Shown piece by piece: positions 3,787 to 62,504 of a stretch of DNA of 64,000 nt. Within the stretch, counting starts at the first letter, position 1; each line of letters begins with the position of its first letter. The notes below the pieces were generated by a model. That model did not search any database. It was not told the origin of the DNA and worked only from the letters and a program-made list of their open reading frames with translations. Source of the stretch: an uncultured virus (IMG/VR IMGVR_UViG_3300028920_000066) (taxonomy: Duplodnaviria > Heunggongvirae > Uroviricota > Caudoviricetes); IMG/VR virus record IMGVR_UViG_3300028920_000066; one strand, written 5' to 3'. Both the position numbers and the translations under genes were made by a program.

Positions 3787-3977
3787 CGTCTACTCCTTTT
3801 TTTTGCTGTTCTCTTCTTTCCTATTGTTGAACTACCTGAACGACTTACACTCATTGAAAAATCATTAGGGGATTTAAACATATCCTTTTTACAGCTCTTA
3901 CAATATTTACTGGCTTTTGACTTAGCTTCATATGTTTTTCCACAAATATCGCACTCCAGCTCTACTATTTTGCCCAT
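3783..3977 (-). CDS. small zinc-ribbon protein
   Basis: CDIC...CKSC. Confidence 0.65.
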   Translation of the reverse strand: MGKIVELECDICGKTYEAKSKASKYCKSCKKDMFKSPNDFSMSVSRSGSSTIGKKRTAKKRSRR

Positions 3978-4471
3978 AACTTTTCCATTTCTGCCTTATA
4001 TTTTTTAATAATATCTGAATTTGTTATCCTTATAAGGTTTTCATAATTGTTTTCCTCAGCACCTTTAGTAAAATTATAGCTACCAGTATAAAGCACAACA
4101 TTATCTATAATAAGAACCTTATTGTGCATAATCCCACCGTGAGCCCCACGCATTATCTTTACTTTATAACCTTTAGCTAACAACTCATCTATCTGACTAT
4201 ACCTACCTGCACTCTGAATCTTATCTGCAATTATCCTGATAGTTACTCCCCTACTCTTCGCACGATATATAGCTTCTACTATATCCTTTGAAGTCAGGGA
4301 ATAAATCATACAATCAAGAGATACACCAGCCCCGTCTATATCTTTAATTAAATCTACACTACAATGATTGGGTGAGAAACACGCAGAGATATCTGGTGTC
4401 TGTGGACAAGTAACACACCCTGTAAACATTACCACAAAAGCCAAAATTACAACTATTCCTAATCTCCTCAT
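3965..4471 (-). CDS. phospholipase D-family (Nuc-like) nuclease with lipoprotein signal peptide
   Basis: single HKD motif MHNKVLIID...GSYNFT; N-terminus MRRLGIVVILAFVVMFTG-C is lipobox-like. Confidence 0.85.
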   Translation of the reverse strand: MRRLGIVVILAFVVMFTGCVTCPQTPDISACFSPNHCSVDLIKDIDGAGVSLDCMIYSLTSKDIVEAIYRAKSRGVTIRIIADKIQSAGRYSQIDELLAKGYKVKIMRGAHGGIMHNKVLIIDNVVLYTGSYNFTKGAEENNYENLIRITNSDIIKKYKAEMEKLWAK

Positions 4472-4696: not shown

Positions 4697-5788
4697 TTAT
4701 TCTTCCTCCTCTTCAACTTCTTCAGCTTCTTCCTTTTTAGGAATAACTCCACCGTTCTTAAGATAAAGTTCTCTTGTTTCTTTATCAATCTTCTTAGCAA
4801 AAGCCTTATCTTCTTTAAGTTTTTCAAGAACAGCTTTCTTCTGCCCTATCTTTTCTCCGTTATAAGAATACCACGTTCCACTCTTTTCAAATATCCCAAC
4901 GTGTGTTGCACCCAGCATAATAGACTTTTCTTTATCAATACCATATCCAAACAGAATATCAAAGAAAGCCTCTTTAAACGGAGCTGACACTTTATTCTTT
5001 ACCACTTTTGCTTTAACTGTATTCCCAACAAGAGCCCCGTCTTTTTCAATTTTATCCTTTCTCCTAATATCTATCCTTACAGAAGAATAGAATTTAAGAG
5101 CACGTCCACCTGGCGTAGTTTCAGGGTTACCAAACATTACCCCTATTTTTTCACGAATCTGATTGATAAACAGAACTACACATCTTGATTTACTGATAAT
5201 AGCTGTAAGCTTTCTCATAGCCTGTGACATAAGTCTTGCCTGAAGACCCATATGAGAATCACCCATATCACCCTCAATCTCTGCTTTAGGCACAAGAGCC
5301 GCCACCGAGTCAACAACAATAATATCCACAGCATTAGACCTTACAAGCGTTTCAGTTATTTCAAGCCCCTGTTCTCCTGTATCGGGCTGTGATATCATAA
5401 GCTCATCAATATTAACTCCTATCTTTGTAGCATACTCAGGGTCAAGAGCATTTTCCGCATCAACATAAGCACACGTGCCCCCAGCCTTTTGGCACTCTGC
5501 AACAATACTCAAAGCAAGAGTTGACTTACCTGATGACTCAGGTCCGAACAATTCGATTACCCTACCACGAGGAACACCACCACACCCAAGAGCCATATCA
5601 AGAGTAAGCGACCCTGTAGGTATTGCTTCTATTCCCACATTAGGTGTATCCCCTAACTTCATAATACTACCCTTACCAAAATCTTTCTCAATCTGTTTAA
5701 TTGCTTCTTCTAACGCTTTCTTTTTATTCGCTTTCTTATCCTTTCCATCTTCTTCTGGTGCACCTGCTGTTGCTTTTTTCTTAGCCAT
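4697..5788 (-). CDS. recA: RecA recombinase
   Basis: GPESSGKS Walker A, VVDSVAAL Walker [20 protein letters not shown]; start moved to MAKKK after AAGGAGG. Confidence 0.97.
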
Positions 5789-5890
5789 CTTTCTGCCTCC
5801 TTTTGTAATTGGCAATAGCGACATCTATCGCTATCTGATTTTGCATAGCTTGATTACGTTTCTTTTTCTTACGAGTTCTTTTACGCTTAA

Positions 5891-6527: not shown

Positions 6528-6725
6528 CTATTCTAAAAAAGCTGTCAGCTTTAAGCGTTCAACTTTTATTATTTCACCGAGCTGAGCTATTTCATAATTT
6601 TTTCTTTTATTAAATATTTTATTTTCAGCTTGTTTTTTGGTAGATGCTTTGACTAAAAAAAGATGGTCGTCACTAAACTCTTCGTGTAAGGTTTCGACCT
6701 CAATAAGAAAATAATTGGACTTCAT
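6528..6725 (-). CDS. hypothetical protein
   Basis: 65 aa ORF, ATGA overlap with groES. Confidence 0.65.
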   Translation of the reverse strand: MKSNYFLIEVETLHEEFSDDHLFLVKASTKKQAENKIFNKRKNYEIAQLGEIIKVERLKLTAFLE

Positions 6726-7027
6726 TTCGATTCTATGGCAATTATATCTGCCACTTCTATCATAAGATATTGCGTTTTTGCTTTATCATCATCCCGAACT
6801 TCTGACCCCGTATACTTAGCAACTAATACTATGTCACCTTTCTTAAAGTCTACAGGTTCAACTCTCGAACCCCAGTCAATGATTTCAGCTTTAGGTAATT
6901 CATTACTCATTTCTTTTACAGTTGACGGAACTATAATGTCCCCAACTTTATTCATTTCTTCTTTCTTTTCCTGATTCTGGTCTAAAGGTTTGACCATAAT
7001 CTTACTTCCAACAGGTTTAATTTTCAT
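6722..7027 (-). CDS. groES: co-chaperonin GroES (Cpn10)
   Basis: MKIKPVGSKIMVK..GDIIVP..KKGDIVLVAKYTGSEV..YLMIEVADIIA; GAGGAG RBS. Confidence 0.9.
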   Translation of the reverse strand: MKIKPVGSKIMVKPLDQNQEKKEEMNKVGDIIVPSTVKEMSNELPKAEIIDWGSRVEPVDFKKGDIVLVAKYTGSEVRDDDKAKTQYLMIEVADIIAIESK

Positions 7028-7470: not shown

Positions 7471-7607
7471 AAAAATTGGGAGAAAGCCGATAAGGGAACA
7501 CACCTTTCGGTGTTTGGTGGGAATTGAACCCACGACCTAAACTTTATAAGAGTTTTGCTCTACCAATTGAGCTACGAAGTAACCCTGTATCTCACTACCC
7601 AATTTTT
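7471..7607 (-). ncRNA. Y-RNA-like unit 4 (about 137 nt) carrying D, anticodon (UAU) and T arms in normal tRNA order
   Basis: scaffold plus UAGCUCAAUUGGUAGAGCA, AAACU-CUUAUAA-AGUUU, AGGUC, GUGGG-UUCAAUU-CCCAC; no acceptor stem. Confidence 0.85.
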
Positions 7608-7610
7608 TCT

Positions 7611-7622
7611 ATTAAAGAACAA
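7611..7622 (-). promoter_or_regulatory. second boxA-like antitermination element inside the RNA array
   Basis: TTGTTCTTTAAT between units 3 and 4; resembles rrn boxA TGCTCTTTAACA. Confidence 0.55.
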
Positions 7623-7631
7623 TTTATTTTT

Positions 7632-7769
7632 AATGTGGAGAAAACCGAGAAGAGAACGTTAGTGCCTTTTCCAATTAGGCTATTCCCCCTCTTGGTGGGG
7701 GAAGTAGGATTCGAACCTACAATCTCTGCATCCAATTTGCGAAGTAACTCTATCTCTCACTACCACATT
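7632..7769 (-). ncRNA. YrlA-like Y RNA (unit 3, about 138 nt) with a circularly permuted tRNA module
   Basis: scaffold, then T arm GUAGG-UUCGAAU-CCUAC, closed acceptor stem UUCCCCC-ACCAAGA-GGGGGAA, D arm GCCU-AAUUGGAAA-AGGC; adjacent to Ro60. Confidence 0.88.
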
Positions 7770-7780
7770 TATTTATTTTT

Positions 7781-7909
7781 AAAGTGGAGGAAACCGATAA
7801 GGGAATTGTTTGTATCCCCCGTAGGGGACATTTTTAGGGTTTGAACCTAATAAAAAACTTTTTGTAAGTTTTTATTAACCGAAGTATCCCTATATCTCAC
7901 TACCACTTT
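7781..7909 (-). ncRNA. Y-RNA-like unit 2 (about 129 nt), degenerate tRNA-like cargo
   Basis: scaffold, AU hairpin, T-arm-like UUAGG-UUCAAAC-CCUAA, and UGUCCCC-UACG-GGGGAUA hairpin. Confidence 0.8.
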
Positions 7910-7913
7910 TATC

Positions 7914-7993
7914 TTATGGGAGAAAACTTACGAGAGTTCTTTTTAAAATTTTTCACGAATTTTCGAAGTATCTCTTCGTATCACTACCCATAA
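7914..7993 (-). ncRNA. Y-RNA-like unit 1 (about 80 nt), minimal scaffold
   Basis: UUAUGGG/CCCAUAA stem, UAGUGA, UACGA-A-GAG/CUCUCGUA helix, AUACUUCG, short AU-rich insert. Confidence 0.8.
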
Positions 7994-8001
7994 TCTTTAT
8001 C

Positions 8002-8051
8002 TTTTAAAGAACATTATTTCAGATTTAGGATGAGTTTCCCCACCCTAAACC
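8002..8051 (-). promoter_or_regulatory. boxB-like GAAA hairpin followed by boxA-like element, leader of the RNA array
   Basis: GGTTTAGGGTGGG-GAAA-CTCATCCTAAATC (8051-8022) with no U tract, then TGTTCTTTAAAA (8013-8002). Confidence 0.6.
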
Positions 8052-8055
8052 AATA

Positions 8056-9567
8056 TTACAATTCTACTTTCTTAATCTTGTTGACAAGTGCTTTCTTATC
8101 CTGTTCTAACAACTTCATCATATCAAACACTTTGTCGCTAAATCCAGCAAGACAGTAAACCTGATTCTCTGGAAACTCAAGCGTTCCATATCCTGCTAAG
8201 TCAAAAGAATACAAGTGAGTTCCTACGCCATACTTATCTTGGTAGGTTTTGAAAGCTTTTGGAGCGGTTACTCCTGAGCTTCCCCATCCCCAACTTGTTT
8301 CTTTCCAACCCTGCATATCCGACATCAAAATTATTCTGTCATATTTCTTTTTAGCTCTTGTGAACGGATATCCAAAGTCTGTTCCACCACCGTGATTATT
8401 CTTAGCAATATGTTCTGTGATTGTCATCACGGAATCTTTTGGATTCACATTAACATATCTTGCGTCATCAGAAAACATTAAAAAATCACAGTTATTAGTT
8501 TTCACAAGCACAGCCGCAAACAACGCCCCAATTTCAATAGGTGTCTGTTTATCTCTATCACCATATCCAAATCCACCCATAGAACCAGAATCGTCTAATG
8601 CAACTAACATACTTCCGTCAAACTTAGGAACATTATTAAGAGAAATTTCTACAGCGTCATCGATAGCAACCATTATATCTCTTGCTCTGTCCAGTCTACT
8701 ATTCTTAAACTCTTTATAAGCAGTATAAAATCTGAAAGGCAATACAAGAGATTTCTTGATTAGCTTCTCGTCCCTTAACATATCAAGAGCCTTATCAAGC
8801 ATATCAGGTGACTGCTCTGCAATATTTCTTAAATTTCTTAAAAGAGCAAAGTATCCAATCTTTCTTGTGCCTACAAGTTCTTTCCAAGCGTCAGCCTTAA
8901 ACTTTTCTTTCTCTTCCTCAGTCTTAGCTGTTTGACCAGCCTTTGTCAACTTAGTTTCCCAAGTTCCATCTGAAGAAAGTTTATTGTCTACAACAAGCTT
9001 TTTTAAAGCCTCAGCGTTCTTTTCTGTAGGTCTTGGTCTTACAAGATTGATAGCGTCAAGTAAAGATACTTCTTTTGTGCCACCCTTATATTTAGCAATT
9101 TGATATGCGTCAAACTTATCAAAAGCTTTAGCAAGACCTTTCTTTAAAGCATTAGGAAGAACAGCTCTCTTCTTATCTTTACTGTATTTATCAAAATAGT
9201 TTGCAAGGATTTCTGTGATATCATCTGTTCTGTAAACTACTTTATTAAAGAAAGATTTACCCCAAGAAACACCCTGTCCTTTGATTTCATTAGCAATTAT
9301 TGAAGCAAGAGCGTGAGTAATAGACCTCATACCAAACTCAGTTCTTGCATAGATACCAGCCTTAGCACCAAATGATAAGTCAGGAAGCTTCTTTACAACA
9401 GCTTCTAACTGTTTCAAAGCTGTTCCAGAATCCCTGTAATACTGGTCTTTCACAAAGCTGGTTAGTAATAAAGACACTAATTCCAACTCTGGACTTTCCT
9501 TGTAAGATTTTCCACCTGCAAGGTTAGTAGTTTTTGTTCCTGCTTTCTTTTTGTTGAATTTGCTCAT
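8056..9567 (-). CDS. Ro60/Rsr RNA-binding protein (TROVE + vWA domains)
   Basis: TTNLAGGKSY, YARTEFGMRS, FDAYQIAKY, TWETKLT, IGYFALLRNLRNI, LVLPFRFYTAY, MIDAS DDSGSM, GGGTDF, SDMQGW; start at MSKFNKK after AGGAGAGG. Confidence 0.95.
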   Translation of the reverse strand: MSKFNKKKAGTKTTNLAGGKSYKESPELELVSLLLTSFVKDQYYRDSGTALKQLEAVVKKLPDLSFGAKAGIYARTEFGMRSITHALASIIANEIKGQGVSWGKSFFNKVVYRTDDITEILANYFDKYSKDKKRAVLPNALKKGLAKAFDKFDAYQIAKYKGGTKEVSLLDAINLVRPRPTEKNAEALKKLVVDNKLSSDGTWETKLTKAGQTAKTEEEKEKFKADAWKELVGTRKIGYFALLRNLRNIAEQSPDMLDKALDMLRDEKLIKKSLVLPFRFYTAYKEFKNSRLDRARDIMVAIDDAVEISLNNVPKFDGSMLVALDDSGSMGGFGYGDRDKQTPIEIGALFAAVLVKTNNCDFLMFSDDARYVNVNPKDSVMTITEHIAKNNHGGGTDFGYPFTRAKKKYDRIILMSDMQGWKETSWGWGSSGVTAPKAFKTYQDKYGVGTHLYSFDLAGYGTLEFPENQVYCLAGFSDKVFDMMKLLEQDKKALVNKIKKVEL

Positions 9568-9633
9568 AACTTCACCTCTCCTGTTTAAGTGCCCGTCCCT
9601 GTAGTTGGACACCGAATATCTATCTTGTATATA

Positions 9634-10722: not shown

Positions 10723-11079
10723 TTATCTTTCCTCCATTCTGGATTCAATTATGTTCTCAATTCCTTTTTGGTCTAACACACCTGACACTACAGCCCTAAC
10801 CTTATTATCTTTATTGATAAACAAAGTGCTTGGTATCTTATCTATTCCTAAAATAACCCGTGATACCTTTGCTACTTTATCTTTATCAACGTTATATATT
10901 CTACATAACATTGTCTTTCCGTCAGAGTTCTTAACGTCCATTTTTATCAACTCATCTGTATACTCTTTACAAAACTTACAGCCATCAGCTATTAACACTA
11001 CAAGCTTCTCTGTATTATCAGCCAATATCCCTTTAACCTCTTCTATATCTTTTTTCATTTGTTCCATAACTTGTTTCAT
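10723..11079 (-). CDS. thioredoxin-like protein
   Basis: GCKFC redox motif and IPST cis-Pro segment. Confidence 0.8.
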   Translation of the reverse strand: MKQVMEQMKKDIEEVKGILADNTEKLVVLIADGCKFCKEYTDELIKMDVKNSDGKTMLCRIYNVDKDKVAKVSRVILGIDKIPSTLFINKDNKVRAVVSGVLDQKGIENIIESRMEER

Positions 11080-11581: not shown

Positions 11582-11658
11582 TGGTGACGCATAAGGGATT
11601 CGAACCCTTGATAACCTGATAGAAAGTCAGGTGGCTTAGACCACTTGCCCAATGCGTC
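11582..11658 (-). tRNA. tRNA-Glu(TTC), CCA encoded
   Basis: GACGCAT/ATGCGTC acceptor, CCTGA-CTTTCTA-TCAGG anticodon arm, AAGGG-TTCGAAT-CCCTT T arm. Confidence 0.9.
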
Positions 11659-11760: not shown

Positions 11761-12222
11761 TTAAAGCTCCTCCGTCCACCAGAAGTATTTTCTTATATCT
11801 TCAGCAGTAGGTTCGCCCTTTGGCTCATACATTTCTACTACTATTCGCTTAACCTTATCAGGGGTTTTTTCTCTTGATAAAGTTCTCTCAATAAGGTTTT
11901 TATCATTATCCAGCTTACCACTACCCTCAAAAGCGTCCCACAATAACTTATGTAAATTATTTGTATCAGCGTTCTTTTTAAGATTATAAGCCGTAAGCTC
12001 TGCTATAACGTATGTATCTTTCCAGCTTGGCATACCTTGTTTATTAGCTTGGTCTTTTATCATCCACTCAAGCTCTTCTTTTAATTGTTTTCCGTCAGGA
12101 GTCATATACATATGTGGTCTTTTTAAAGGCTTACCTTTTCTATCACGAAACGCCATACGATATATAGCATTAACACTTAAAGGCATAGGCAACTCAAATC
12201 TATATTTCTTAATCGTTTCCAT
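11761..12222 (-). CDS. rusA: RusA-family Holliday junction resolvase
   Basis: LPMPLSVNAIY ... DTNNLHKLLWDAFEGSGKLDNDK. Confidence 0.8.
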   Translation of the reverse strand: METIKKYRFELPMPLSVNAIYRMAFRDRKGKPLKRPHMYMTPDGKQLKEELEWMIKDQANKQGMPSWKDTYVIAELTAYNLKKNADTNNLHKLLWDAFEGSGKLDNDKNLIERTLSREKTPDKVKRIVVEMYEPKGEPTAEDIRKYFWWTEEL

Positions 12223-12223
12223 T

Positions 12224-15200
12224 TTACCACTTCCAAATAAATTTTTTCACATCAATATCTTTTATCCTATCGTTTAAAGAATTGCTTGTATCCTCTTTAG
12301 GCTTATCTTTTAATATCCTATTCTCGTCACCAATATACTGACGCTTCAAGGGTTTATCTTCTTTTATACTACCATCTCCAGTTTCTTCTACAGAAAGGTC
12401 TGCTATATCCTTTACAAGAGTATCGTCTTTAAGAAGCTCCTTTATTTTTTCTTTAGTTGTTTTACTTTCTAACTGACTTAATTTGTCTTTTTTCTTTTTC
12501 TTTTTATTCTTTTTAGGCTTTAAGTATTGCATTACATTATCTATATTCCACCTAAAATAATGTTCTTGTGCAGTATTATCTTCTTCACTACCATCATAAA
12601 CTTCTGTGCTCATCATATTAGCTTTTATATCAAACCTTTCGTCCTTTGGATTTATATAATAAAAATCATTTAATATAAATTCAGTATCTGGTTCTACACC
12701 CATTCCTGCTTCTGGCAAAACAACACTCCCAGGCTTACCGTCCAATTCTTTACAAGCTTCTTTTGTCACATAGGCTAACGTAATATGTGGTTTATAATCT
12801 TTATATGTTGTAATATGTTCAAATTTATCCGAAACATTTTTATGTAGTTTATGTAAATCCTCTGATTCTACTTCTATGATAATCACATCATATGGTTTCT
12901 GGTCATCAGAAAATCTTGATAAATTACCAAATTTTATATTAACAGGATTTACCAAACCTAATATCTCATCTGCATTATGTTCTTTTAAACCATATAAAAC
13001 TGTAGCGTGTATTTCGTTTTCACGACCAAAACCTTTTTCTTCAACATATAAATCTTCATCTTTAATAGTCTGTTTAGCAAAATTTCTTATACGTTCAGCT
13101 ATTTCTATAGGTAGCTCTACCATTAAACACCCATATTTTTCTTCTGCACATATTGAATGTTTTATATTAGCTTCCACTACGTCTTTATTAAATGTAGTTA
13201 CTGCTATCTTATGTATAGCGTCCCTAAAAGCTCTTTCGTCTTCTTCCCAAGCGTCATCATTTTCATCGTCTATATATAAATTATTCTTTTCCCAAGTATC
13301 CGAACATAATTCTATATGAACCTGTTCTCTTTCGTCCTCAAATTTTTGCCAATCTTTTGTAGACCATCCACCCAAAACTATATCGGCATACTTCTTTAAT
13401 AAGTCCATATCTATTTTAAGCTCTCCATTATCAAACATCTTAACATATTCATCAACCTTATACCCCGTCACGTCTTTAACCTGCGTAGATTCTTTTATCA
13501 TTGTTTCTGAGTGCTCTGGATACTTATTCTTTTTAAATCCCATACCCTTATACCATTTCTGTAATTTTTTCTTATTACCACCAAAATCTCCTGACGGAGT
13601 AAGCGTTACAACAAGACCGTGCTCTTTGGCATAATCAAGAACTAAATCCATTACTTGTGTGCCTATACCTTGTTGCCTTTCTTCTTTAGGAACAAGTATT
13701 TTATTAACCGTTATAGCTTTCGTGCTTGGGTGATAAGTAGTCCACAAAGTCACATTAGGATATTTCTCTTCTACTAACTTATCCAACTCCTCTATATTAA
13801 CCTCCGAAGAGTTTACACCTTTTTTATTAAGAGTTTTTATACTCAAGTCTATCCTAAAATCATTATCTTTAAATTCATCCCACGTATTATAAATAAGTTT
13901 ATCTCCATAATCCATAACAATAAAATCTTTTGGTGCATATTCTGTTATCAATTCTTCAGCTTTTGTAAGGTCTACCCCAGCCTTACATTCAATGTTAGCT
14001 GTTTCTTCATAAAACCAAAACCTTATCCAACCGTCACGTATCATATTATTAAATGTTTCTGAAGTTGTCGAACCTATTTGTGTATACTTTTTAACAATAT
14101 CTAAATTTTCGTCTATCCACCAGCTATGCGTTTCAGGAACTCCCTCATTCCTAATATTAAAATCTGTGCCATCAGGGGCTATCCAATAAGCACTTCCTAC
14201 CGCGGCATAAACATATCTTAAATTACTTGCTGGTTGTTCAAACATATCCTTTACTCCCCACACCTTAACGTCTTTACCCTCATAAGTTTTCTCTTCTATT
14301 TTATTTACTGCTGTTAGTTTTCCAAGCGTCACAGGTTTATCATCTTCTAACTCGTTTTCTAAAAATTTATCTAAAGCGTCAAAATCTGTTTTTGAACTAA
14401 ACATCACATTAGTTCCATAACTCCATTTTCTTATACGAGCCCAACCACCTACAACCATTCTATCTAATATATCAAATGGACTTGCTTCATACATATCATA
14501 CTTTTCATATACTTCTATGTCCTTATTAGAAAGATATGGTTCAACGTATTCCATATTTTCAGCTTCCAAAACCCATTCTGCGTGAACGTCCCCCACTTCT
14601 ATTACTTCTCCTTTAGGTGTTATAAACCACCCAGCTATCATCTCTGCCTTTATTTTGCTACCAAATATTTTATCCCAAGTAGTATTATAACTTTTATTTA
14701 AAGTTAAGTCTTGCAAATTATAACTATCCATTATAATACTATCACCACTTTTTCCAATGTCCCCCATTAAAGGTTTTATTTTTTCTATAGCGTCCTTTCT
14801 ATTCCCATAATAATTGACACCCCAATAATTCATATCGCTTAATCTTACAGCTATCCAACCGTCTTTTAACATTTCTGCTATAACATCAGCAAGAGCATAA
14901 TACATTTTATTATCATATAGTTTTATCTTTTTATTATTAACCATATCCATCTGTTCATCTGTAAAATATTGTGACAACTCTTCAGCGTTGTCATATATCC
15001 AAGCTCTATGGTCATCCTTGCCCCATTTACCCAATTTAATATATGAGCTATCAGGCTTTACCCAATAGCCCTGACCTGGCATATCAGAAGCTTTTACATT
15101 ACTTTGTATCTCTTCCAGCCACGTTGTCTTATCTTCTAAATTTTTCTTACCCTCGTCAATGACCTTATATAAAAAGTAATAATCGTGATTATCTATATCA

Positions 15201-17080
15201 AATATTTCATAGTTGCCATAATTCTCGGTTATCTTTATCTTTGTGCCTACTGGAAGTTCTTTATATAATATAACATCTTCTATATCATATGGGTCATCTG
15301 GGTCTGGCTCTGGGTTCTCCCCCCAATAATGAACCATTAACGGTTTAGTTACTTCTACCATCGTGCTACTTGCTTTTACATATTCTTCTTCTATCATTCC
15401 TGTTATCGCAAGTCTTACTGCGTGATTAACATCAGGAATTTCTCCAAAGTCACTATAATCAGCCATATCTAATTGGCTTAAAAGACCGTGCTCTTCTAAA
15501 AGGGTCATAAGCCATTCAATATTACCTGCCGTTGCTTTACTTGTGCCTACTCCTAACAGTTCTGATAAATATTCGTGCTGAGTTTCTCTTTCATAATCAT
15601 CACTTAATCCCTTTTCAACTTTCTCTATTATCTTTTTATATTTATAAAACTCTTTCCAAAACTTTTTCCAATTAACTTTTGGAAATTCTTGGTTCTTTAT
15701 TAAGCTTTCTATAAAAGAAAAAGCGTCTTGTCGTGATGATTTAACTTTCTTGTGGTCTTCTACTATCTTATTTATCTTTTTTAATATTGCTTTACCCCAT
15801 TTACCATTATAAGGAACATTAACTGCTCGGTCATCAAGAAATACTAATGCTGTAGAAGATTTCTCATTTGTTATCTTATCATAAGGCACTTCATTCTTAT
15901 CCAGCAACTTCTTTATCTTATCCCTGTCCTCTTTACCTCTGGCTGTGAATATAACTATCTTCCAACCATCTTCTTTTAACTCCTTTAATATCTTCACATT
16001 TTCTTCTATTAAATCTTTTGAACCAGTATAAGGATAATTATCAACAGCAAGAGTTCCGTCAAAATCTATACAGATTTCTTTCTTTCCAGCATTGATTATA
16101 ATCTTTGATTTTATATCTTTAATAAACTGCAACGCATAACCGTGAACAGCGTCCCTTAAAGGTTCTGTCAATACAGCGTCATATATGTGTTGATAAGGGC
16201 TATCTTCACCTATAAGTTCATTATAAAGAGCCTCATTGTTTTCTATAATCCACATCACTAACTCTATATGTTTATCGCTTCTTAACTGGTCGAATTTTTC
16301 AAACTCATCATCAGAAGCCTTTTCTACATTTTTAACAGCATTTACATAATCTGTTAATAATTTTTCATCAACTTTAAGTTCACCACGATTAAGTCTATAT
16401 TCATAATCTTCTACCTTTTTCTTATGCTCTTCATAATTACCTATCACAGACAGACTGTGAACCTCATACATAAACTGGTCAAAGTCTTCGCCAAAGAACT
16501 CGGCTGGAATTTGGTCAGCCATTTCAAATATTTGCTGGTCAGTAAGATTAGGGTTATTTTTCTGAATATTGATTTTTAATTCGGTGTGTAATCTTTGACG
16601 TTCCTTTTCAAGCTCTTCTAAAAGTTCTACATTATATTTAGAGTTCATCATATTATTAAGGTGTGTAAGATATTTATTAAGAACTTCCTCATCTATCTTA
16701 ATATCGCTTATGGTTATTGCCTTACCATAAACATTACCAAATGCGTCTTCTACATATTCATAATCTTTAAGTGCATCTTCCACAACAAACTGTTTAGCAT
16801 AATGATGCACAGCGTCCCTAAAATCTAAATCATCTAAATCATATTGTTTGTTTAGTTCTGGATTTAATCTCAAAAAAGCTTCCGTAAGTTTGTCGTGTAG
16901 GTCAACTCTATGTAAATCTATTATGATAAGTTCTTTTGTGTTATATTCTTTTTTAGCATAATCGTTTTCTTCTTGCCAAACAGAAATATATTCTTCTAAT
17001 TCCTTTTCTGGGATTTTTATTTTATTACTGTTTAGTTTTCGTAAAATTTGTTTACTATTAGAAGTTATTTTATTTTTTAG
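12224..17080 (-). CDS. polyvalent protein: helical repeats, HAD phosphatase, three W-x-x-P-x-G repeats, GNAT, Acb1-like 2H phosphoesterase; probably the -1 frame continuation of the GGDEF gene
   Basis: frame is open from 17080, upstream of the tracked TTG at 16873; DFDGTL/FTARG/FLDDRAV, VPKEERQQGIGT, HATVLY...HITLAY. Confidence 0.85.
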   Translation of the reverse strand, partial: LKNKITSNSKQILRKLNSNKIKIPEKELEEYISVWQEENDYAKKEYNTKELIIIDLHRVDLHDKLTEAFLRLNPELNKQYDLDDLDFRDAVHHYAKQFVVEDALKDYEYVEDAFGNVYGKAITISDIKIDEEVLNKYLTHLNNMMNSKYNVELLEELEKERQRLHTELKINIQKNNPNLTDQQIFEMADQIPAEFFGEDFDQFMYEVHSLSVIGNYEEHKKKVEDYEYRLNRGELKVDEKLLTDYVNAVKNVEKASDDEFEKFDQLRSDKHIELVMWIIENNEALYNELIGEDSPYQHIYDAVLTEPLRDAVHGYALQFIKDIKSKIIINAGKKEICIDFDGTLAVDNYPYTGSKDLIEENVKILKELKEDGWKIVIFTARGKEDRDKIKKLLDKNEVPYDKITNEKSSTALVFLDDRAVNVPYNGKWGKAILKKINKIVEDHKKVKSSRQDAFSFIESLIKNQEFPKVNWKKFWKEFYKYKKIIEKVEKGLSDDYERETQHEYLSELLGVGTSKATAGNIEWLMTLLEEHGLLSQLDMADYSDFGEIPDVNHAVRLAITGMIEEEYVKASSTMVEVTKPLMVHYWGENPEPDPDDPYDIEDVILYKELPVGTKIKITENYGNYEIFDIDNHDYYFLYKVIDEGKKNLEDKTTWLEEIQSNVKASDMPGQGYWVKPDSSYIKLGKWGKDDHRAWIYDNAEELSQYFTDEQMDMVNNKKIKLYDNKMYYALADVIAEMLKDGWIAVRLSDMNYWGVNYYGNRKDAIEKIKPLMGDIGKSGDSIIMDSYNLQDLTLNKSYNTTWDKIFGSKIKAEMIAGWFITPKGEVIEVGDVHAEWVLEAENMEYVEPYLSNKDIEVYEKYDMYEASPFDILDRMVVGGWARIRKWSYGTNVMFSSKTDFDALDKFLENELEDDKPVTLGKLTAVNKIEEKTYEGKDVKVWGVKDMFEQPASNLRYVYAAVGSAYWIAPDGTDFNIRNEGVPETHSWWIDENLDIVKKYTQIGSTTSETFNNMIRDGWIRFWFYEETANIECKAGVDLTKAEELITEYAPKDFIVMDYGDKLIYNTWDEFKDNDFRIDLSIKTLNKKGVNSSEVNIEELDKLVEEKYPNVTLWTTYHPSTKAITVNKILVPKEERQQGIGTQVMDLVLDYAKEHGLVVTLTPSGDFGGNKKKLQKWYKGMGFKKNKYPEHSETMIKESTQVKDVTGYKVDEYVKMFDNGELKIDMDLLKKYADIVLGGWSTKDWQKFEDEREQVHIELCSDTWEKNNLYIDDENDDAWEEDERAFRDAIHKIAVTTFNKDVVEANIKHSICAEEKYGCLMVELPIEIAERIRNFAKQTIKDEDLYVEEKGFGRENEIHATVLYGLKEHNADEILGLVNPVNIKFGNLSRFSDDQKPYDVIIIEVESEDLHKLHKNVSDKFEHITTYKDYKPHITLAYVTKEACKELDGKPGSVVLPEAGMGVEPDTEFILNDFYYINPKDERFDIKANMMSTEVYDGSEEDNTAQEHYFRWNIDNVMQYLKPKKNKKKKKKDKLSQLESKTTKEKIKELLKDDTLVKDIADLSVEETGDGSIKEDKPLKRQYIGDENRILKDKPKEDTSNSLNDRIKDIDVKKFIWKW

Positions 17081-18240
17081 TTTTTTTTTCTACTCTCTAT
17101 TTCTTTTGGCGTTTCGTCATCACAAGTTTCACACTCTTCATTCTTCGTCAAATCCTTGCCGTCATCTGTGTGAGCCTCACAATCCATACCCTCTTCATAT
17201 TCCACTACCATATCACGCCCACCCTCTTTAGCACAATATAAAGCTTTGTCCGCTTCTTTAAATACTTCTTCTGTGCTTTCAGTTTCTTCATAGCCCGTGA
17301 ACCCAATTGATACAGAAATATTAAACCCATTTTCAAACTCAAGTGTTTTAACTTTTTCTCTTAATTCGTCAAGAAAAACTTCTGCTGTCACACTATCATC
17401 AGCAGGTAATAATAATATAAATTCTTCCCCTCCCCACCTGAAAGCAATTGTTTCTTTGTCCAGCATACCACCTAAAGCCTTAAGCACTTCATCCCCCACA
17501 TCGTGCCCATAAGTGTCATTAACGTCTTTAAAATGGTCTACGTCTATGATTGCAAAATACAAAGACTCATCGTCTAAATCTTCTACCACTAAGTCAAAAG
17601 CATTACGATTATATAATTGAGTAAGATTATCTCTCAAAGCAAGGTCTTTCCAATATTCAATATCTTTATCTTTATCTTCATTCTTTATGTTCTGCTCGTT
17701 CTCTTCGTCAGCTTTAATGTTCTCTAAAACTCTATACTTATCTTCACCTAAATATTGTATGTTGATATATGATTTATCTATTATATTAGTAGCGATAGTT
17801 TTGTCACCACCACCTCGCCAATCTTCTACCTGATATCCAAGCTCTGCTAACTCAAGTTCAGAATATACTTTGTTTGCACACACCAAGTTTCGTGCATTAG
17901 CTTCTTCGATTGTTTCCTCTATGATAGCTTTCTTCTCTGGGTCTTTTTCTGTTTTAAGCATATCCTCTAATTCACATACCGTATGCTCTATTAAAAACTC
18001 AAAATATTTATAAGACTCTTCTTCGGTCATATTAGATTTCACCTTTTTAATATGGTATCGTGGTTCTTCTGCTTCATCTTCTCGAATTGTTTTATCTCTA
18101 CTTCTCATACTCGGTTGAAACTCATCTAATAATCTTAAATAAACAGTATCTCCACCAGAACGAGTAAACCTTTCACGTATTCTATAGTCTATACCGTCAT
18201 AGTTAATATAATTTCCAGGGTCGGTATTTTTAGCTTTCAT
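17077..18240 (-). CDS. GGDEF diguanylate cyclase with N-terminal unknown domains
   Basis: DNLTQLYNR, IIDVDHFKDVNDTYGHDVGDEVL, RWGGEEF, ADKALYCAKEGGRD. Confidence 0.92.
   Translation of the reverse strand: MKAKNTDPGNYINYDGIDYRIRERFTRSGGDTVYLRLLDEFQPSMRSRDKTIREDEAEEPRYHIKKVKSNMTEEESYKYFEFLIEHTVCELEDMLKTEKDPEKKAIIEETIEEANARNLVCANKVYSELELAELGYQVEDWRGGGDKTIATNIIDKSYINIQYLGEDKYRVLENIKADEENEQNIKNEDKDKDIEYWKDLALRDNLTQLYNRNAFDLVVEDLDDESLYFAIIDVDHFKDVNDTYGHDVGDEVLKALGGMLDKETIAFRWGGEEFILLLPADDSVTAEVFLDELREKVKTLEFENGFNISVSIGFTGYEETESTEEVFKEADKALYCAKEGGRDMVVEYEEGMDCEAHTDDGKDLTKNEECETCDDETPKEIESRKKN
17080..17089 (-). other. A9 slippery site (AGA AAA AAA AAC TAA), putative -1 frameshift
   Basis: A AAA AAC heptamer in frame 0; the -1 frame has TAG immediately before the run and is then open for about 4.9 kb. 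Confidence 0.75.
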
Positions 18241-18258: not shown

Positions 18259-18285
18259 CTTTATAAAATAGAAATATATAACTAA
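18259..18285 (-). promoter_or_regulatory. 27-bp conserved intergenic motif, copy 1 (putative phage-specific promoter)
   Basis: minus strand TTAGTTATAT-N5-TATTTTATAAAG just upstream of the RBS of the GGDEF gene. Confidence 0.7.
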
Positions 18286-18312
18286 AAAGAACAGGGGTAG
18301 ACAAGCTACCCC
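18284..18312 (-). terminator. intrinsic terminator
   Basis: GGGGTAG-CTTGT-CTACCCC followed by TGTTCTTTTT. Confidence 0.6.
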
Positions 18313-18354
18313 CATTCCACCCTCTAATCCTCTTTCATCCCCTTAAACCTACTG

Positions 18355-20717: not shown

Positions 20718-20744
20718 CTTTATAAAATAAAAAAATATAACTAA
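20718..20744 (-). promoter_or_regulatory. 27-bp conserved intergenic motif, copy 2
   Basis: plus strand CTTTATAAAATA-AAAAA-ATATAACTAA. Confidence 0.7.
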
Positions 20745-21128: not shown

Positions 21129-21755
21129 CTACACTTTTATTTTATACAGAGATAACACTTCAGTTAAGTCGTCTGCTATTTCACGATACTTCTTTTCAGG
21201 TAACCTTTTCTTAAGAACGCCTCTTATAATTATCAATAACTTACTCAACTCTTCTTTTAAAAACTGTTTATGTTGATTGCTCTCCATCATCGTAAGCTTC
21301 ATTTTATCTTCTTTTTCTATAATGTCAGCCAAAACTTTCTGTTGATTCAATAAAAGAGCGTCCATCTCAGCTATTATCCTTTGAGGGTTTCGGGTTTGTT
21401 CATTTACAACTGCTGTAATTCTCTCAACCCCTATCTTTCTCAGCCACTCCATAACTGCCGCTTTATTTTTATAATCCACAACGTTCTGTGGCATATTTGT
21501 AAAATTATTTACCATACTATTATCTTGCTTACTGGGAACTTCTACTTTTGCAGGAATAAGAATATCAGACTTTCTGCTTTCTTTCAGCCCGTCTAAATAT
21601 TTTCTAAGCTCTTTAATGTTAAACTTTATATCGCCTTTATAATATCTCTTTATATATTTCATTATATCTTTTTCGTCTAAGTCTTCAAACTCCATAAGCA
21701 TAGCCACATCATACAATATGCTCTTAGGCAAAAGATATATTTCTTTAATACTCAT
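21129..21755 (-). CDS. hypothetical protein
   Basis: 208 aa ORF. Confidence 0.7.
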   Translation of the reverse strand: MSIKEIYLLPKSILYDVAMLMEFEDLDEKDIMKYIKRYYKGDIKFNIKELRKYLDGLKESRKSDILIPAKVEVPSKQDNSMVNNFTNMPQNVVDYKNKAAVMEWLRKIGVERITAVVNEQTRNPQRIIAEMDALLLNQQKVLADIIEKEDKMKLTMMESNQHKQFLKEELSKLLIIIRGVLKKRLPEKKYREIADDLTEVLSLYKIKV

Positions 21756-22591
21756 TATGTCCAGAACTCCTTTTGTGTTTTATTATGAATTTTTCTTATT
21801 TTTTTTGCTAAACGTCTTATTTCTAAAGTTATATATACCTGAGTAGTTTCTAATAATCTTGCTATATCCGTAACCCTTATTCCTAATAATAATAACGCAC
21901 ATATTTTTTTTTGATTCTCTGTGAGGTTTTTAAAATAATATTTATAAAAAATAGAAAAATCAAAAATTCTATCATATAATTCAAATCCATTTTGATATTG
22001 TTTTAACGGTCGGGTGCTTGGAAGAAAAATTCCGTTCTCATCTATATCGTTTAAGTGTTCATTTTCCGTTTCGGAAAATCGTTCATCTCTATCTATACGC
22101 TCGTCTTCCATATAAATAAGATTATAATCTCTCTCGAAAAATACAGTTTCATTCTTTTTATAAAAATACTGAAGCATATGTAAATTATATTTTAATTTAT
22201 ATCTTTGTTTCTTTATATAAAGACAATAATAAGCAGGTTCTACTTTTCCACTCTTACGAGTAATACTACCAATTTTTTTCAATCTAAAATCATATTTACT
22301 TATTTCTTTAATAGGCTCAGGTTTAAAATCTCCAATATTATAATTCCAAGATTTCAGTTTAACTTTTTGATACGAACCGTCAAATTTTCTTCCTATTCTT
22401 TGTAAATAATATTTACTTATTTTAAATTTAAAATCATTAAAATCTATAGGACACTCTGTTATAATATAATAATCAAACACAGAAAAACTTATGTTTTTCT
22501 TTTTAACAAAACTTATAAACTTATTTAAAATATAATCATTCGGAACAGCATAACAAAAACCCTCAACCATAAGCATTTCACCCTCAAACAA
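21755..22591 (-). CDS. sigma-factor-like protein (C-terminal region-4-type HTH)
   Basis: LTENQKKICALLLLGIRVTDIARLLETTQVYITLEIRRLAKKIRK. Confidence 0.6.
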   Translation of the reverse strand: MFEGEMLMVEGFCYAVPNDYILNKFISFVKKKNISFSVFDYYIITECPIDFNDFKFKISKYYLQRIGRKFDGSYQKVKLKSWNYNIGDFKPEPIKEISKYDFRLKKIGSITRKSGKVEPAYYCLYIKKQRYKLKYNLHMLQYFYKKNETVFFERDYNLIYMEDERIDRDERFSETENEHLNDIDENGIFLPSTRPLKQYQNGFELYDRIFDFSIFYKYYFKNLTENQKKICALLLLGIRVTDIARLLETTQVYITLEIRRLAKKIRKIHNKTQKEFWT

Positions 22592-23667: not shown

Positions 23668-26355
23668 CTAAAATAACGAACCCATATCTCCGTGTTTCTT
23701 TTTCTTCTTCAATTGTTTTCTCATCTCAAGCAAATCGTCTGTAGTATAATTTTTACCAAAAGCGTTCTTAAAAAATCCGTGTGATATTAGAACTTCCATT
23801 ACCGTTTTATTAACCTTGCAACGCTCTAAAAAATCTTCAGCGTCTTTATAAGGTTTATTAACTATAACTTCTATAATACTTTTTTCTCCAATACCCTTTA
23901 AAGACTTAGCCCCTGGCAAAATTTTACCGTCTTTATCAAGCTCAAACTGATATGTTATTTCATTAAGATTATATGGCTTAATAACAAATCCTTGATTTAA
24001 ACACTCATCTATCGTAGCCTCAAACTTTGCTTGTTCTTTTTTCTGACTAAGTTCAAAATTGTTCAAGGTCGCTATAATAAAATACTTACGATAATAACAT
24101 TTAAGATAAGCCATTTGATATGCCAATAATGTATAAGATACACTATGTGATTTATTAAACGTATACCCAGCAGACTGCTCAAGAAAAGCAACAGCCTCTT
24201 CTACGTCTTGCTTGTTATATTTTTCATACATATAATGATAATAATTATGTTCATTAAGTAAGTCTTTAATGCTACACTTCTCAAGCTGTTTACGATAAAT
24301 ATCTGCCTCTCCCACGCTTATGTCCATCCAATCTGATAAAATAGATATAATCTGTTCCTGATAAATTAAAAGCCCATATGTTTTTTCCAAATGCTTTTCT
24401 AATAATTTTGGTGTTTTATATTTCCCACCAAACCTACGACTTTCATATTTATCATCTGTTTTTATAGACAAAGCACCAGGTCGGTTAATAGCGTTAATTT
24501 CAACAAGGTGTTTAAACCTATCAGGTTTCATTCTTTCTAACATTCCCATTATTTTAACTATCCTCCACCCCTCCTTACGTTTATAACCTTTCATAGACGG
24601 TGTATCAAATTGAAATATATTATTAACGTCTATATCTCTAAACATCTGTAATATATTCTGGTCATTTAAATCAAGATTATGTATATCTACATCTTTATTC
24701 TCGTGCTCTCTTATAAGCGTAAGTGTGTCATCTATAATATCAAGACCTTTGATTCCAAGTATATCCATCTTTAAAAACTTCTTACTCGTAAGAGTATCCC
24801 CGTCAATAGCACTTACTACTTCCTTTGCTGTAGCGTTATATACCGTAGGCATATATTCATAAACTGGCTTATCTGTAACAACCACACCAGCCGCGTGTGT
24901 TCCGAACTGTCTTATATTACCCTCCAGTTTACTCGCTATCTCAAAATACTTACTATATTTTTCTTTTATATCCTTACGCTCTATATTTTCTACAACAAAG
25001 TTAGCTTCTTTAAACGGAATATTATAAATTCTTAATACATCCTTTAAAGCATTTTTTAACTTAAATTCCACATAAGAGCCTATCTGAACCACGTTCTCTT
25101 CGCCATACTTCTTAATATAAGATAAAACCTTTTGACGCTGTGACTTTTGAAAGTCAACATCTATATCAGGCATTTTTCTTCTTGTAGGATTTAAAAACCT
25201 TTCAAAAGAAAGATTAAATTTTAAAGGGTCAACATCAGTAATATCAAGCATATAAGCTACAACCGAACCAGCCGCACTCCCACGACCACCACCAACAAAA
25301 ATATCACTCTGTTTAGCCCAGCTTACTATATCTTGCACAATCCAAAAGTATTCTAAAAAACCAAGTTCTTTAATAACACCATATTCATATTTTAATCTTT
25401 TTTTATATTCTTCTATGGGTTTTGCTTTAGGTTTTTTTTGAAGATTTTCACGTATAATATTCTTCATTGTTTCTTCTTTAAAATCTACTTTCGGGAACAC
25501 AAACTCTTTAGAATATATTTCATATTCTTCAACCTTATGTGATATTTGTAATGTGTTTTCCAAACACTCTTCTACAACAGGCTTTTCAAAAACATCACTC
25601 ATTATCGTTATTATCTCGTCATAAGTTTTAAGATAAAGGTCTTTATCGTCCATAACCCAACCTTTACCGTTCTTAATATCTTCTATAGTTACTTTATCAT
25701 TTATGTTATGAAGTATCTGCTGAATTTTATAATCTGATTTATTTATATAATGAGTATCGGTTGTTATAATACTTTTTATATCGTGTTTCTTAGAAAGCTC
25801 ATACATTAACTTCCATAAGTCTTTATAATGACTTGTTCTTGATAAAGCTATATATTCAAAATAAAAGTCCTCACCAAATATATGTTTAAGTCTTTTTATG
25901 TTATTTTCTACCTTTGTGTTGTCTTTTTCTAATAATGGTTTAGCTATAATCCCCGAAGAACAAGCCGTAGAACATATAACGTTTCCACCCATTTGTTCTA
26001 AATTATTCCAGTCTATTCTTGGACGATAATAGAATCCATTCTTATTTGCGTCATATTGAGCTTTAAGGAGTGCTCTATAGCCGTCATAATTTTTAGCTAA
26101 TAAAAGAATATGATAAGGCTTATCTTTTGTAGTCTTATCGTCAACAAAATAAGCCTCAATCCCTATAATAGGTTTTAACCCCGATTGTTTACAAGCGTCA
26201 TAATAATCAAACACTCCTGCGAGAGTGCCGTGATTAGTTTGTGCATATGCTATACCGCCCATTTCTTTTACTTTCTCAAGATATTTAATGGGCTTATACA
26301 TACCATCCTTTAACGAATATGTATCGTGATTATGAAGACTAACGTATTTTTCCAT
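23668..26355 (-). CDS. dnaE: DNA polymerase III alpha subunit
   Basis: PHP SLHNHDTYSLKDG, GRGSAAGS, FERFLNP, MPDIDVDF, GTHAAGVV, FLKMDILG, FNKSHS. Confidence 0.96.
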   Translation of the reverse strand: MEKYVSLHNHDTYSLKDGMYKPIKYLEKVKEMGGIAYAQTNHGTLAGVFDYYDACKQSGLKPIIGIEAYFVDDKTTKDKPYHILLLAKNYDGYRALLKAQYDANKNGFYYRPRIDWNNLEQMGGNVICSTACSSGIIAKPLLEKDNTKVENNIKRLKHIFGEDFYFEYIALSRTSHYKDLWKLMYELSKKHDIKSIITTDTHYINKSDYKIQQILHNINDKVTIEDIKNGKGWVMDDKDLYLKTYDEIITIMSDVFEKPVVEECLENTLQISHKVEEYEIYSKEFVFPKVDFKEETMKNIIRENLQKKPKAKPIEEYKKRLKYEYGVIKELGFLEYFWIVQDIVSWAKQSDIFVGGGRGSAAGSVVAYMLDITDVDPLKFNLSFERFLNPTRRKMPDIDVDFQKSQRQKVLSYIKKYGEENVVQIGSYVEFKLKNALKDVLRIYNIPFKEANFVVENIERKDIKEKYSKYFEIASKLEGNIRQFGTHAAGVVVTDKPVYEYMPTVYNATAKEVVSAIDGDTLTSKKFLKMDILGIKGLDIIDDTLTLIREHENKDVDIHNLDLNDQNILQMFRDIDVNNIFQFDTPSMKGYKRKEGWRIVKIMGMLERMKPDRFKHLVEINAINRPGALSIKTDDKYESRRFGGKYKTPKLLEKHLEKTYGLLIYQEQIISILSDWMDISVGEADIYRKQLEKCSIKDLLNEHNYYHYMYEKYNKQDVEEAVAFLEQSAGYTFNKSHSVSYTLLAYQMAYLKCYYRKYFIIATLNNFELSQKKEQAKFEATIDECLNQGFVIKPYNLNEITYQFELDKDGKILPGAKSLKGIGEKSIIEVIVNKPYKDAEDFLERCKVNKTVMEVLISHGFFKNAFGKNYTTDDLLEMRKQLKKKKKHGDMGSLF

Positions 26356-26371: not shown

Positions 26372-26445
26372 TGGCTACGGGGGGTGGGCTCGAACCACCA
26401 TTCACAGATTCAAAGTCTGTTGTCCTACCATTGGACGACCCCGTA
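26372..26445 (-). tRNA. tRNA-Gln(TTG), CCA encoded
   Basis: TACGGGG/CCCCGTA acceptor with U1-A72, ACAGA-CTTTGAA-TCTGT, GGTGG-TTCGAGC-CCACC. Confidence 0.93.
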
Positions 26446-49591: not shown

Positions 49592-49602
49592 AACTTGCCT
49601 CC

Positions 49603-62477: not shown

Positions 62478-62504
62478 CTTTATAAAATAAAATTATATAA
62501 CTAA
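62478..62504 (-). promoter_or_regulatory. 27-bp conserved intergenic motif, copy 3, heading the tail operon
   Basis: plus strand CTTTATAAAATA-AAATT-ATATAACTAA. Confidence 0.7.

Follow-up and report, generated by a model that had tools for sequence, protein, structure and literature searches.

Passages of the survey of polyvalent proteins of phages and conjugative elements by Iyer, Burroughs, Anand, de Souza and Aravind (2017) list 2H, GGDEF and GNAT among their domains, and describe 2H domains fused to portal and MuF that were proposed to degrade defence nucleotides or to act as RNases (PMC5512222). One member of the 2H fold, Acb1, is characterized as carrying an HxT/HxT tetrad and as proceeding through a cyclic-phosphate intermediate to a linear 3′-phosphate product (PMC9117128). 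For GGDEF enzymes, a section of PMC12657218 gives a base-reading rule in which Asn corresponds to G and Ser to A. Excerpts of PMC5009743 describe the g/gt arrangement of phage tail chaperones, which uses a -1 frameshift, and name A_AAA_AAC among the shifty heptamers. Here we describe a locus at 12224-18240, on the minus strand of a 64,000-nucleotide stretch of DNA (the window) from an uncultured virus of the Caudoviricetes (IMG/VR record IMGVR_UViG_3300028920_000066), in which a GGDEF cyclase frame, open reading frame 1 (ORF1), and a long multi-domain frame, ORF2, overlap in a run of nine adenines (A9). The reading that we prefer, with about even confidence, is that a -1 slip on A9 would yield two products from this unit, and that the 2H and HAD domains of the longer product would act on cyclic phosphodiesters, immune cyclic oligonucleotides being the favoured substrate.

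Two reading frames overlap in a run of nine adenines

Under translation table 11 the locus is two frames and not one ORF, and the long frame lies at -1 relative to ORF1. Its features are as follows.

17077-18240, minus strand: ORF1, 387 amino acids (aa), with an N-terminal region, a GGDEF domain and a Cys/His tail; its TAA stop is at 17077-17079
17212-17640, minus strand: GGDEF diguanylate-cyclase domain, ORF1 residues 201-343, GGEEF intact
17122-17199, minus strand: tail motif YEEGMDCxAH..KN..C, C-terminal to the GGDEF domain
17081-17089, minus strand: A9 run, proposed -1 slip site; 0 frame AGA AAA AAA AAC TAA, -1 frame AAA AAA AAA CTA
12224-17089, minus strand: ORF2 frame, 1621 codons between flanking stops; first canonical start TTG 16873
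16100-17047, minus strand: helical linker repeats H1-H3, ORF2 residues 15-330; z 5.5-7.0, and none of 200 shuffles scores as high
15755-16087, minus strand: HAD phosphatase domain, small and capless, at residues 335-445; motifs DFDGTL, FTAR and DDRA
13910-15172, minus strand: beta-rich repeats B1-B3, residues 640-1060; z 6.1-8.1
13505-13792, minus strand: GNAT-like domain, residues 1100-1195; RQQGIG fits the acetyl-CoA motif
13175-13492, minus strand: fourth helical linker repeat, H4, at residues 1200-1305; it aligns with H3 at z 9.9 and with H2 at z 7.4
12620-13150, minus strand: 2H phosphoesterase domain, residues 1314-1490, with YGCLM, HATVLY and HITLAY
12227-12619, minus strand: Lys-rich C-terminal tail, residues 1491-1621

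The 3′ end of ORF1 reads AGT AGA AAA AAA AAC TAA, and the ORF2 frame becomes open with the first A of A9, position 17089, four codons ahead of the ORF1 stop. The first 72 codons of ORF2, from 17089 to the TTG, contain no stop and no ATG, GTG or TTG, while the other two frames are interrupted by 7 and 10 stops. Stop-free windows of 72 codons are rare when 13 long ORFs of the same phage are read out of frame (10 of 16,452). In addition, Smith-Waterman alignment places the beginning of H1, matched to H3, at about ORF2 residue 17, which is 5′ of the TTG at residue 73, and a complete first repeat therefore needs a start upstream of the TTG. The overlap thus combines a slippery X_XXY_YYZ sequence with a downstream coding frame that has no start of its own. 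We infer that a -1 slip on A9 joins ORF1 and ORF2, giving a short cyclase and a fusion of about 2000 aa. Runs of nine adenines are prone to transcriptional slippage; the slip could be ribosomal or transcriptional.

An earlier note on this DNA, made from the letters alone, had described 12224-18240 as one gene, which holds only if the slip joins the two frames. Its placement of the domains was borne out: GGDEF at about 17200-17650, HAD with DFDGTL..TAR..DDRA at about 15750-16090, GNAT at about 13500-13800, 2H with YGCLM, HATVLY and HITLAY at about 12630-13145, and three repeats of unknown kind, which are B1-B3. The four helical repeats that it counted are real and beyond chance, but they are not consecutive, three lying between GGDEF and HAD and one between GNAT and 2H.

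A tail-chaperone-type site and fused relatives support the proposed slip

The coding strand carries four A9 runs and none longer, and one of them lies where phages are expected to recode.

57391-58070, minus strand: tail-chaperone-type recoding site, with A9 at 57651-57659

This run terminates a 142-aa ORF (…FSQVKKKAQ, then stop); on one side of this ORF lie the sheath gene and its tube-like neighbours, and on the other a 586-aa ORF. The -1 frame at the run is open for 88 codons, up to the 586-aa ORF, and this extension matches phrog_4988, a tail assembly chaperone, at 6e-6. The 586-aa ORF has no family match; its place and composition suggest the tape measure. The same phage apparently uses A9 with a -1 shift where recoding is expected. 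As in g/gt and dnaX, a slippery A-rich heptamer closes the upstream ORF at the ORF1/ORF2 junction and the downstream frame lacks a start codon, and two products with the same N-terminus are predicted. In contrast to g/gt, whose extension is a small structural domain, that of ORF1 comprises 1621 codons of enzymes; a search of the junction gave no stimulator, and the slip could be transcriptional.

Three of the seven closest ORF1 relatives (P0160, P0161 and P0163) are single GGDEF+HAD chains of 363-398 aa. Specifically, their GGDEF domains are 50-60% identical to ORF1 residues 188-375, with the tail motif kept, and their HAD domains are 45-48% identical to ORF2 residues 334-452; NCBIfam confirms both domains. 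Judged by sequence, the three chains are Rosetta-stone fusions of the ORF1 and ORF2 frames. Two further relatives, P0162 and P0164, bear other extensions after the tail motif. We read the slip as programmed because the same phage has the A9/-1 tail site and because single-chain GGDEF+HAD relatives exist.

ORF1 is a putative diguanylate cyclase

The protein database contains ORF1, called at 387 aa. Its GGDEF domain matches PF00990 at 1.3e-31 (110 bits, cut-off 23.8) and TIGR00254 with 116.8 bits (cut-off 37.4). It also matches 52 PDB sequences, mostly named diguanylate cyclases, the best at 2.4e-24. Residues D233, D235, N241, D250 and R268 are invariant in all eight aligned sequences of the ORF1 family; by mapping onto PleD we take them to be the metal, guanine and phosphate contacts. 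ORF1 shares with PleD, WspR and DgcZ the GGEEF sequence, the metal-binding Asp and the guanine-reading Asn and Asp. It differs from them in that its GGDEF domain lacks about 15 residues relative to the solved domains, in that no RxxD inhibitory site is seen by eye ahead of GGEEF, and in being phage-encoded with a clade-specific Cys/His tail. The most likely product of the predicted cyclase is cyclic di-GMP (c-di-GMP).

Eight residues of the tail motif (G351, M352, D353, C354, H357, K366, N367 and C370) are invariant in the same 8/8 sequences. A CxxC is added in four of the eight tail-motif sequences (ORF1 and the P0159-P0165 clade), which suggests a small metal site in the segment after the GGDEF domain.

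ORF2 combines catalytic domains with two sets of repeats

BLAST self-comparison is blind to the repeats of ORF2, which were revealed by Smith-Waterman scores against 200 shuffles. The helical units H1-H4 reach z 5.5-9.9 overall, but the pair H1/H4 only z 3.0. The B repeats are shared with P0010, P0011, P0048, P0083, P0127 and P0145. The B-repeat region matches no Pfam family and no atlas entry, and a word-based search of longer proteins returned ORF2 alone; an AlphaFold2 (AF2) model of it, with a predicted local distance difference test (pLDDT) score of 37, is unusable.

The HAD domain matches phrog_1238 at 1.4e-16 and, in the PDB, Pnkp1 (4xrp) at 4.8e-4 and 1xpj at 5.9e-4. The BT0820-type HAD model of NCBIfam reaches 5e-8, which is under its cut-off; Pfam HAD models are likewise under cut-off for ORF2, and Hydrolase_3 is over cut-off in P0010. 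The motif I-IV residues D342, D344, T346, T382, K386/K391, D419 and D420 are invariant in 3/3 proteins.

The GNAT-like domain scores 21.9 bits with Acetyltransf_1 (cut-off 20.7), three other GNAT models remain under their cut-offs, and its PDB matches are weak (E 0.011-0.77). It is 46-56% identical to the domain in P0004-P0007, 42% identical to the GNAT domain of P0038, and 32% identical over 146 aa to P0008, an ART-PolyVal carrier. In the C-terminal tail, which has no atlas match and occurs also in P0010, P0013, P0014 and P0015, invariant columns reach the last residue, W1621, in 3/3 proteins.

The 2H domain adjoins Acb1

The HxT/HxT tetrad of the 2H domain (H1361, T1363, H1435 and T1437) is invariant in 58/58 sequences, an alignment made of the ORF2 domain and 57 solo members among 150 listed. 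Within ORF2 the domain scores 33.4 bits with Pfam Acb1 and 27.7 with 2_5_RNA_ligase2 (cut-off 27 each); in isolation it scores 37.6 with Acb1 (PF23474) and 32.4 with 2_5_RNA_ligase2 (PF13563), against the same cut-offs. Across the 58 family members, PF13563 matches 57 and Acb1 52. A single-sequence search of the PDB returned three Acb1 entries as its sole matches (E 0.018-0.54), and the 2H profile matches Acb1 9q2g at 4.4e-8 (36 bits), Acb1 7t26 at 2.3e-5 and the archaeal LigT-like PH0099 at 1e-4 (25 bits); the profile did not pick up E. coli LigT in the PDB.

The AF2 model of the domain (pLDDT 89.9) has the 2H fold at Z 11.5-13.4. Foldseek ranks Usb1 first and Acb1 next, and the VIA Z scores of CPDase (13.4), LigT (13.2), Usb1 (12.9) and Acb1 7t26 (12.7) all lie within one unit. 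A tblastn search of 50,697 phage records returned 19 records at 29-35% identity, none of them annotated as Acb1. The full HMMER search returned 4039 2H proteins at the E<=0.001 threshold, 1499 of them also at E<=1e-10; solo proteins of about 175 aa form the short end of the family and giants of 5614 aa the long end.

The ORF2 domain resembles Acb1 (the T4 gp57B family; 7t26/7t27, 9q2g) in its 2H fold and HxT/HxT tetrad, in that Acb1 is the top match by sequence and profile, and in that 7t26 superposes on 133/137 residues of the model (2.7 Å, Z 12.7). It differs in that identity to Acb1 is only 15-17%, in that the generic 2'-5' RNA ligase family scores nearly equally, and in that it is embedded in a giant protein, whereas Acb1 is a protein of about 150 aa. 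The Acb1-like label of the earlier note thus stands as the top sequence and profile label; it is a marginal one in view of the isolated-domain scores, the tied folds and the tblastn records. On this evidence, the domain represents a phage-specific 2H clade adjoining Acb1, and not a proven Acb1.

Recurrent domain pairings place the locus among polyvalent proteins

The same HAD domain occurs in 17 of the 149 best 2H relatives (BLAST E<=1e-4), that is in 17 of the 69 relatives of at least 400 aa. It lies N-terminal to the 2H domain in 16 of these 17, often directly adjacent, and in P0038 the order is HAD, GNAT, 2H, as in ORF2. The B repeats occur in six of the 149 and the C-terminal tail in four.

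A Pfam scan for fusions covered 30 proteins, comprising 27 of the 149 relatives, P0009 and two L001 ORFs. The partners of 2H in this set are portal (L001:8345-10738 and P0009), SLT (3), ART-PolyVal (2), InPase (2), NUDIX, low-molecular-weight (LMW) phosphatase, CCA-adding enzyme, Tad3 and LPD1. One relative, P0083 (1702 aa), carries the Thoeris inhibitor Tad3 together with an Acb1-like 2H domain and with B repeats that share 32% identity with the ORF2 set; it is a candidate multi-target anti-defence protein.

In ORF2 alone, HAD, GNAT-like and 2H are unrelated domains within one polypeptide, and the GNAT-like domain and 2H relatives are common to other polyvalent proteins. The interpretation of the locus as a polyvalent conflict protein, put forward before these searches, is upheld by the homology of the GNAT-like and 2H domains to those of giants carrying ART-PolyVal, portal, SLT, InPase, NUDIX and Tad3. 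Like the polyvalent proteins, the locus gathers many unrelated conflict-type enzymatic domains in one phage polypeptide. Unlike them, ORF1 and ORF2 have no MuF, portal or LPD domain and lie away from head genes, ORF2 has the recurrent small HAD and new repeats, and the cyclase would be joined through the proposed -1 slip. The locus belongs to the known polyvalent-protein kind, with apparent recoding at the cyclase junction and recurrent GGDEF+HAD and HAD+2H modules as its distinguishing traits. Our literature search found no title on frameshifting in phage polyvalent proteins and no paper linking Acb1 with polyvalent proteins.

The closest full-length relative, P0010, is 55% identical to ORF2 across the 2H domain and tail. 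No kin of ORF2 or P0010 was found in scans of viral contigs. A metagenome scan gave only three loci, none with the ORF1/ORF2 architecture, and ORF2-like sequence is absent within 7 kb of 17 viral GGDEF loci (29-39% identity). The cyclase and the linkers H1-H3 look like a lineage-specific addition to a protein running from HAD to 2H.

Proposed mechanism and competing explanations

We propose that the locus is a late-type transcription unit in which one message would give two proteins. Normal decoding would yield the 387-aa diguanylate cyclase. A -1 slip on A9, either by ribosomes on A_AAA_AAA/C or by RNA polymerase adding an A, would lead into the 1621-codon frame and yield a fusion of about 2000 aa, comprising the cyclase, three helical linkers, HAD, three beta repeats, the GNAT-like domain, a further linker, 2H and the conserved tail. 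The cyclase would turn GTP into c-di-GMP. The 2H domain would open a 3'-5' or 2',3'-cyclic phosphodiester to leave a terminal phosphate, which the HAD domain would then strip to a hydroxyl. This two-step route, from phosphodiester through phosphate to hydroxyl, fits because HAD precedes 2H in many relatives. The anatomy, the intact GGDEF, HAD and 2H catalytic motifs, the coding overlap without a start, and the recurrence of GGDEF+HAD and HAD+2H are observed; the slip and the enzymology are what we deduce from them. As to the substrate of 2H and HAD, immune cyclic oligonucleotides, as for Acb1, seem to us the better candidate at a little under even confidence, and RNA ends with 2',3'-cyclic phosphate a weaker but substantial one. 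The Tad3 fusion and the profile scores, which put Acb1 first, favour the cyclic-nucleotide assignment; the Pnkp1-like HAD match and the Ro60/Y-RNA-like genes of the phage favour the RNA-end assignment.

Several observations weigh against the preferred reading. At the junction, folding revealed no convincing stimulatory structure; the best fold 3′ of A9 is an AU-rich stem of -8.4 kcal/mol (z -3.3), which starts some 16 nt from the run, and the tail A9 site is likewise without a stimulatory fold (z -0.4). Among the relatives, P0159 and P0165 stop after the tail motif as stand-alone cyclases, and the nearest full-length ORF2 relatives, P0010 (1712 aa) and P0015 (1799 aa), begin at or near HAD without a GGDEF domain; both halves can therefore work unfused. 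As for the enzymes, the Pfam scores of HAD and GNAT lie at or below their cut-offs, and Foldseek and VIA-align cannot separate the 2H fold among LigT, CPDase, Usb1 and Acb1. In addition, the nearest viral models carry 2'-5' RNA ligase or cyclic phosphodiesterase labels (E 3e-13 to 1e-10), the first Acb1 label following at 6e-8, and the best NCBIfam model for 2H, under its cut-off, is RNA 2',3'-cyclic phosphodiesterase.

The alternative that survives best, which we nevertheless consider unlikely, accepts the slip and takes 2H and HAD as an RNA 3'-end healing cassette in place of a signal nuclease. In such a cassette, 2H would open the 2',3'-cyclic phosphate on RNA ends that RNA-cleaving toxins of the host produce (anticodon nucleases or HEPN RNases, for example), and HAD would dephosphorylate these ends, restoring usable tRNA or mRNA. 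The NCBIfam label of 2H points this way, as do the highest fold Z scores, which belong to CPDase and LigT, and the cyclic phosphodiesterase labels of its BFVD neighbours. The best natural PDB match of HAD is the phosphatase domain of the RNA repair protein Pnkp1 (a designed TIM-barrel outranked 4xrp through a short repeated stretch), and phrog_415, a polynucleotide kinase, matches HAD at 1.3e-7. In P0148, 2H occurs alongside an HD domain, a ligase domain and a CCA-adding enzyme; the phage itself has tRNAs, a Y-RNA-like element and a homologue of Ro60. However, searches of the window revealed neither an RNA ligase nor a polynucleotide kinase, sequence profiles put Acb1 first, and P0083 pairs 2H with Tad3, an inhibitor of nucleotide-signal defence. 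According to a passage of the polyvalent-protein survey, 2H domains of this type never associate with RNA ligases (PMC5512222).

We regard as improbable the second alternative, in which ORF1 and ORF2 are independent neighbours, ORF2 starts at a non-canonical codon or at TTG 16873, and the overlap at A9 is coincidental. Gene callers do give separate proteins of 387 aa and 1549 aa, the relatives that are unfused on either side fit this view, and A9 is not rare on so A-rich a strand (4 observed, about 7 expected from composition). Set against these are the 72 open codons without a canonical start, the opening of the frame exactly within the slippery run, and the existence of in-frame GGDEF+HAD relatives. 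TTG 16873 was rejected as the true start, as it lies inside H1 and no Shine-Dalgarno sequence is seen before it.

The third alternative, that the frame break is a homopolymer error and that a true A10 (or A7) gives one ORF of about 2005 codons, is very improbable: homopolymers are the commonest place for indel errors, and run X1, whose contig is identical over 16600-17600 with A9 included, is possibly the source of the assembly itself and gives weak independent support, but its consensus at depth 59 has no indel, general miscalling was rejected because another A9, within the intact sigma-like ORF, stays in frame with homology spanning the run, and the tail-chaperone A9 fits the expected two-frame design.

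A promoter-like motif is shared with the tail genes

The following elements precede ORF1 or recur elsewhere in the window.

18288-18318, minus strand: terminator-like hairpin with a 13-pair stem (6 GC pairs), then TTTTT; it closes the upstream small-gene unit
18259-18284, minus strand: promoter-like bipartite motif TAGTTATAT-N6-ATTTTATAAAG, 18 nt 5′ of the ATG of ORF1; a GGAGG ribosome-binding site lies in the gap
20718-20743, minus strand: exact copy of the motif
46459-46484, minus strand: exact copy
62478-62503, minus strand: exact copy
50458-50483, minus strand: copy with 2 mismatches

The motif has 20 specified bases in 26 nt. Its four exact copies and one near copy, all on the minus strand, compare with 0.11 expected, and 0 of 100 shuffles reach five. 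Three sites (62478, 50458 and 46459) lie in the tail/baseplate region and two (20718 and 18259) near ORF1, in agreement with the earlier note's claim of a promoter motif common to this gene and the tail operon. The copies usually precede GGAG and a start codon. The motif is likely a phage-specific promoter, possibly a late one; we take it to resemble the T4 late -10 element. Co-expression of ORF1 and ORF2 with the tail genes is plausible. The case for packaging into virions and injection, which the earlier note suggested, is circumstantial, its basis being the motif common to the tail genes and the portal-fused relatives; Pfam found no portal or MuF domain in ORF1 or ORF2.

Phage setting and gene neighbourhood

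The window has about 32% G+C, and its A-rich coding (minus) strand carries nearly all genes. The sole run found to contain it is a marine-sediment metagenome, and a search of phage records at the DNA level gave no match. The source is read as an uncultured myovirus, with the following landmarks.

59314-61461: tail sheath
48122-50019: baseplate wedge proteins
23668-26355: family-B DNA polymerase, replication/recombination block
4697-5824: UvsX, replication/recombination block
11761-12222: RusA, replication/recombination block
21755-22591: sigma-like gene

The replication/recombination block also encodes SbcCD, primase, clamp and helicases, and the ORF1/ORF2 locus sits in this module, away from head and tail genes. 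The named cellular proteins closest to the ORF1 GGDEF domain are from Sulfurospirillum, Sulfurimonas, Hydrogenothermus and Campylobacterota; together with the G+C content they give a weak hint of a Campylobacterota host.

A Ro60/TROVE homologue is encoded at 8056-9612 on the minus strand (TROVE 1.7e-16; Ro60 vWA 3e-9). 3′ of it, YrlA, a Y RNA-like element, matches 7639-7738 with 31.4 bits (E 1.3e-4), short of its gathering score of 69, and positions 7509-7581 hold a tRNA-like gene for Ile with the anticodon TAT. The region 7509-9612 (minus strand) may be a phage Ro/Y-RNA module. Further tRNA genes are called on the minus strand at 11582-11658, 26372-26445 and 44073-44152. For tRNA-Glu (TTC) and tRNA-Gln (TTG), Rfam and ARAGORN agree; a tRNA-Leu call within the ORF 43045-45402 comes from ARAGORN alone.

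Accessory genes lie on the minus strand at 3965-4471, 6722-7027, 10723-11079, 27149-27586 and 40522-41565. Scores in this group are 5e-30 for a PLD-like nuclease, 2.6e-10 for GroES/Cpn10, 3.8e-12 for a phage metallopeptidase and 4.5e-17 for a patatin-like phospholipase, and a thioredoxin-like protein scores under cut-off. Runs of eight adenines (A8) with the same flanks (…GTT A8 GT…) recur four times on the minus strand, at 688-695, 1466-1473, 1518-1525 and 1568-1575, and these flanks suggest a repeated Lys-rich unit in the ORFs 360-728 and 940-1548.

Implications

A bolder extension of the preferred reading, to which we give very little weight, is that the slip would fix the ratio of free cyclase to cyclase tethered to 2H and HAD. 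The tethered 2H and HAD would erase immune cyclic nucleotides, while the cyclase would flood the cell with a spared dinucleotide that keeps Panoptes-type decoy guards silent or reprogrammes host c-di-GMP behaviour, and the long form would be loaded into virions through the C-terminal tail, to act on entry.

Polyvalent proteins and Acb1-type nucleases are already known. What is new here is a nucleotide cyclase that is apparently coupled by recoding to a multi-enzyme conflict protein, an arrangement that would give two products and set their ratio. In addition, the recurrent GGDEF+HAD and HAD+2H pairings point to a defined two-step nucleotide chemistry. The 2H clade, with its 4039 proteins, appears to lie between Acb1 and LigT, and knowing its substrate would annotate thousands of phage proteins.

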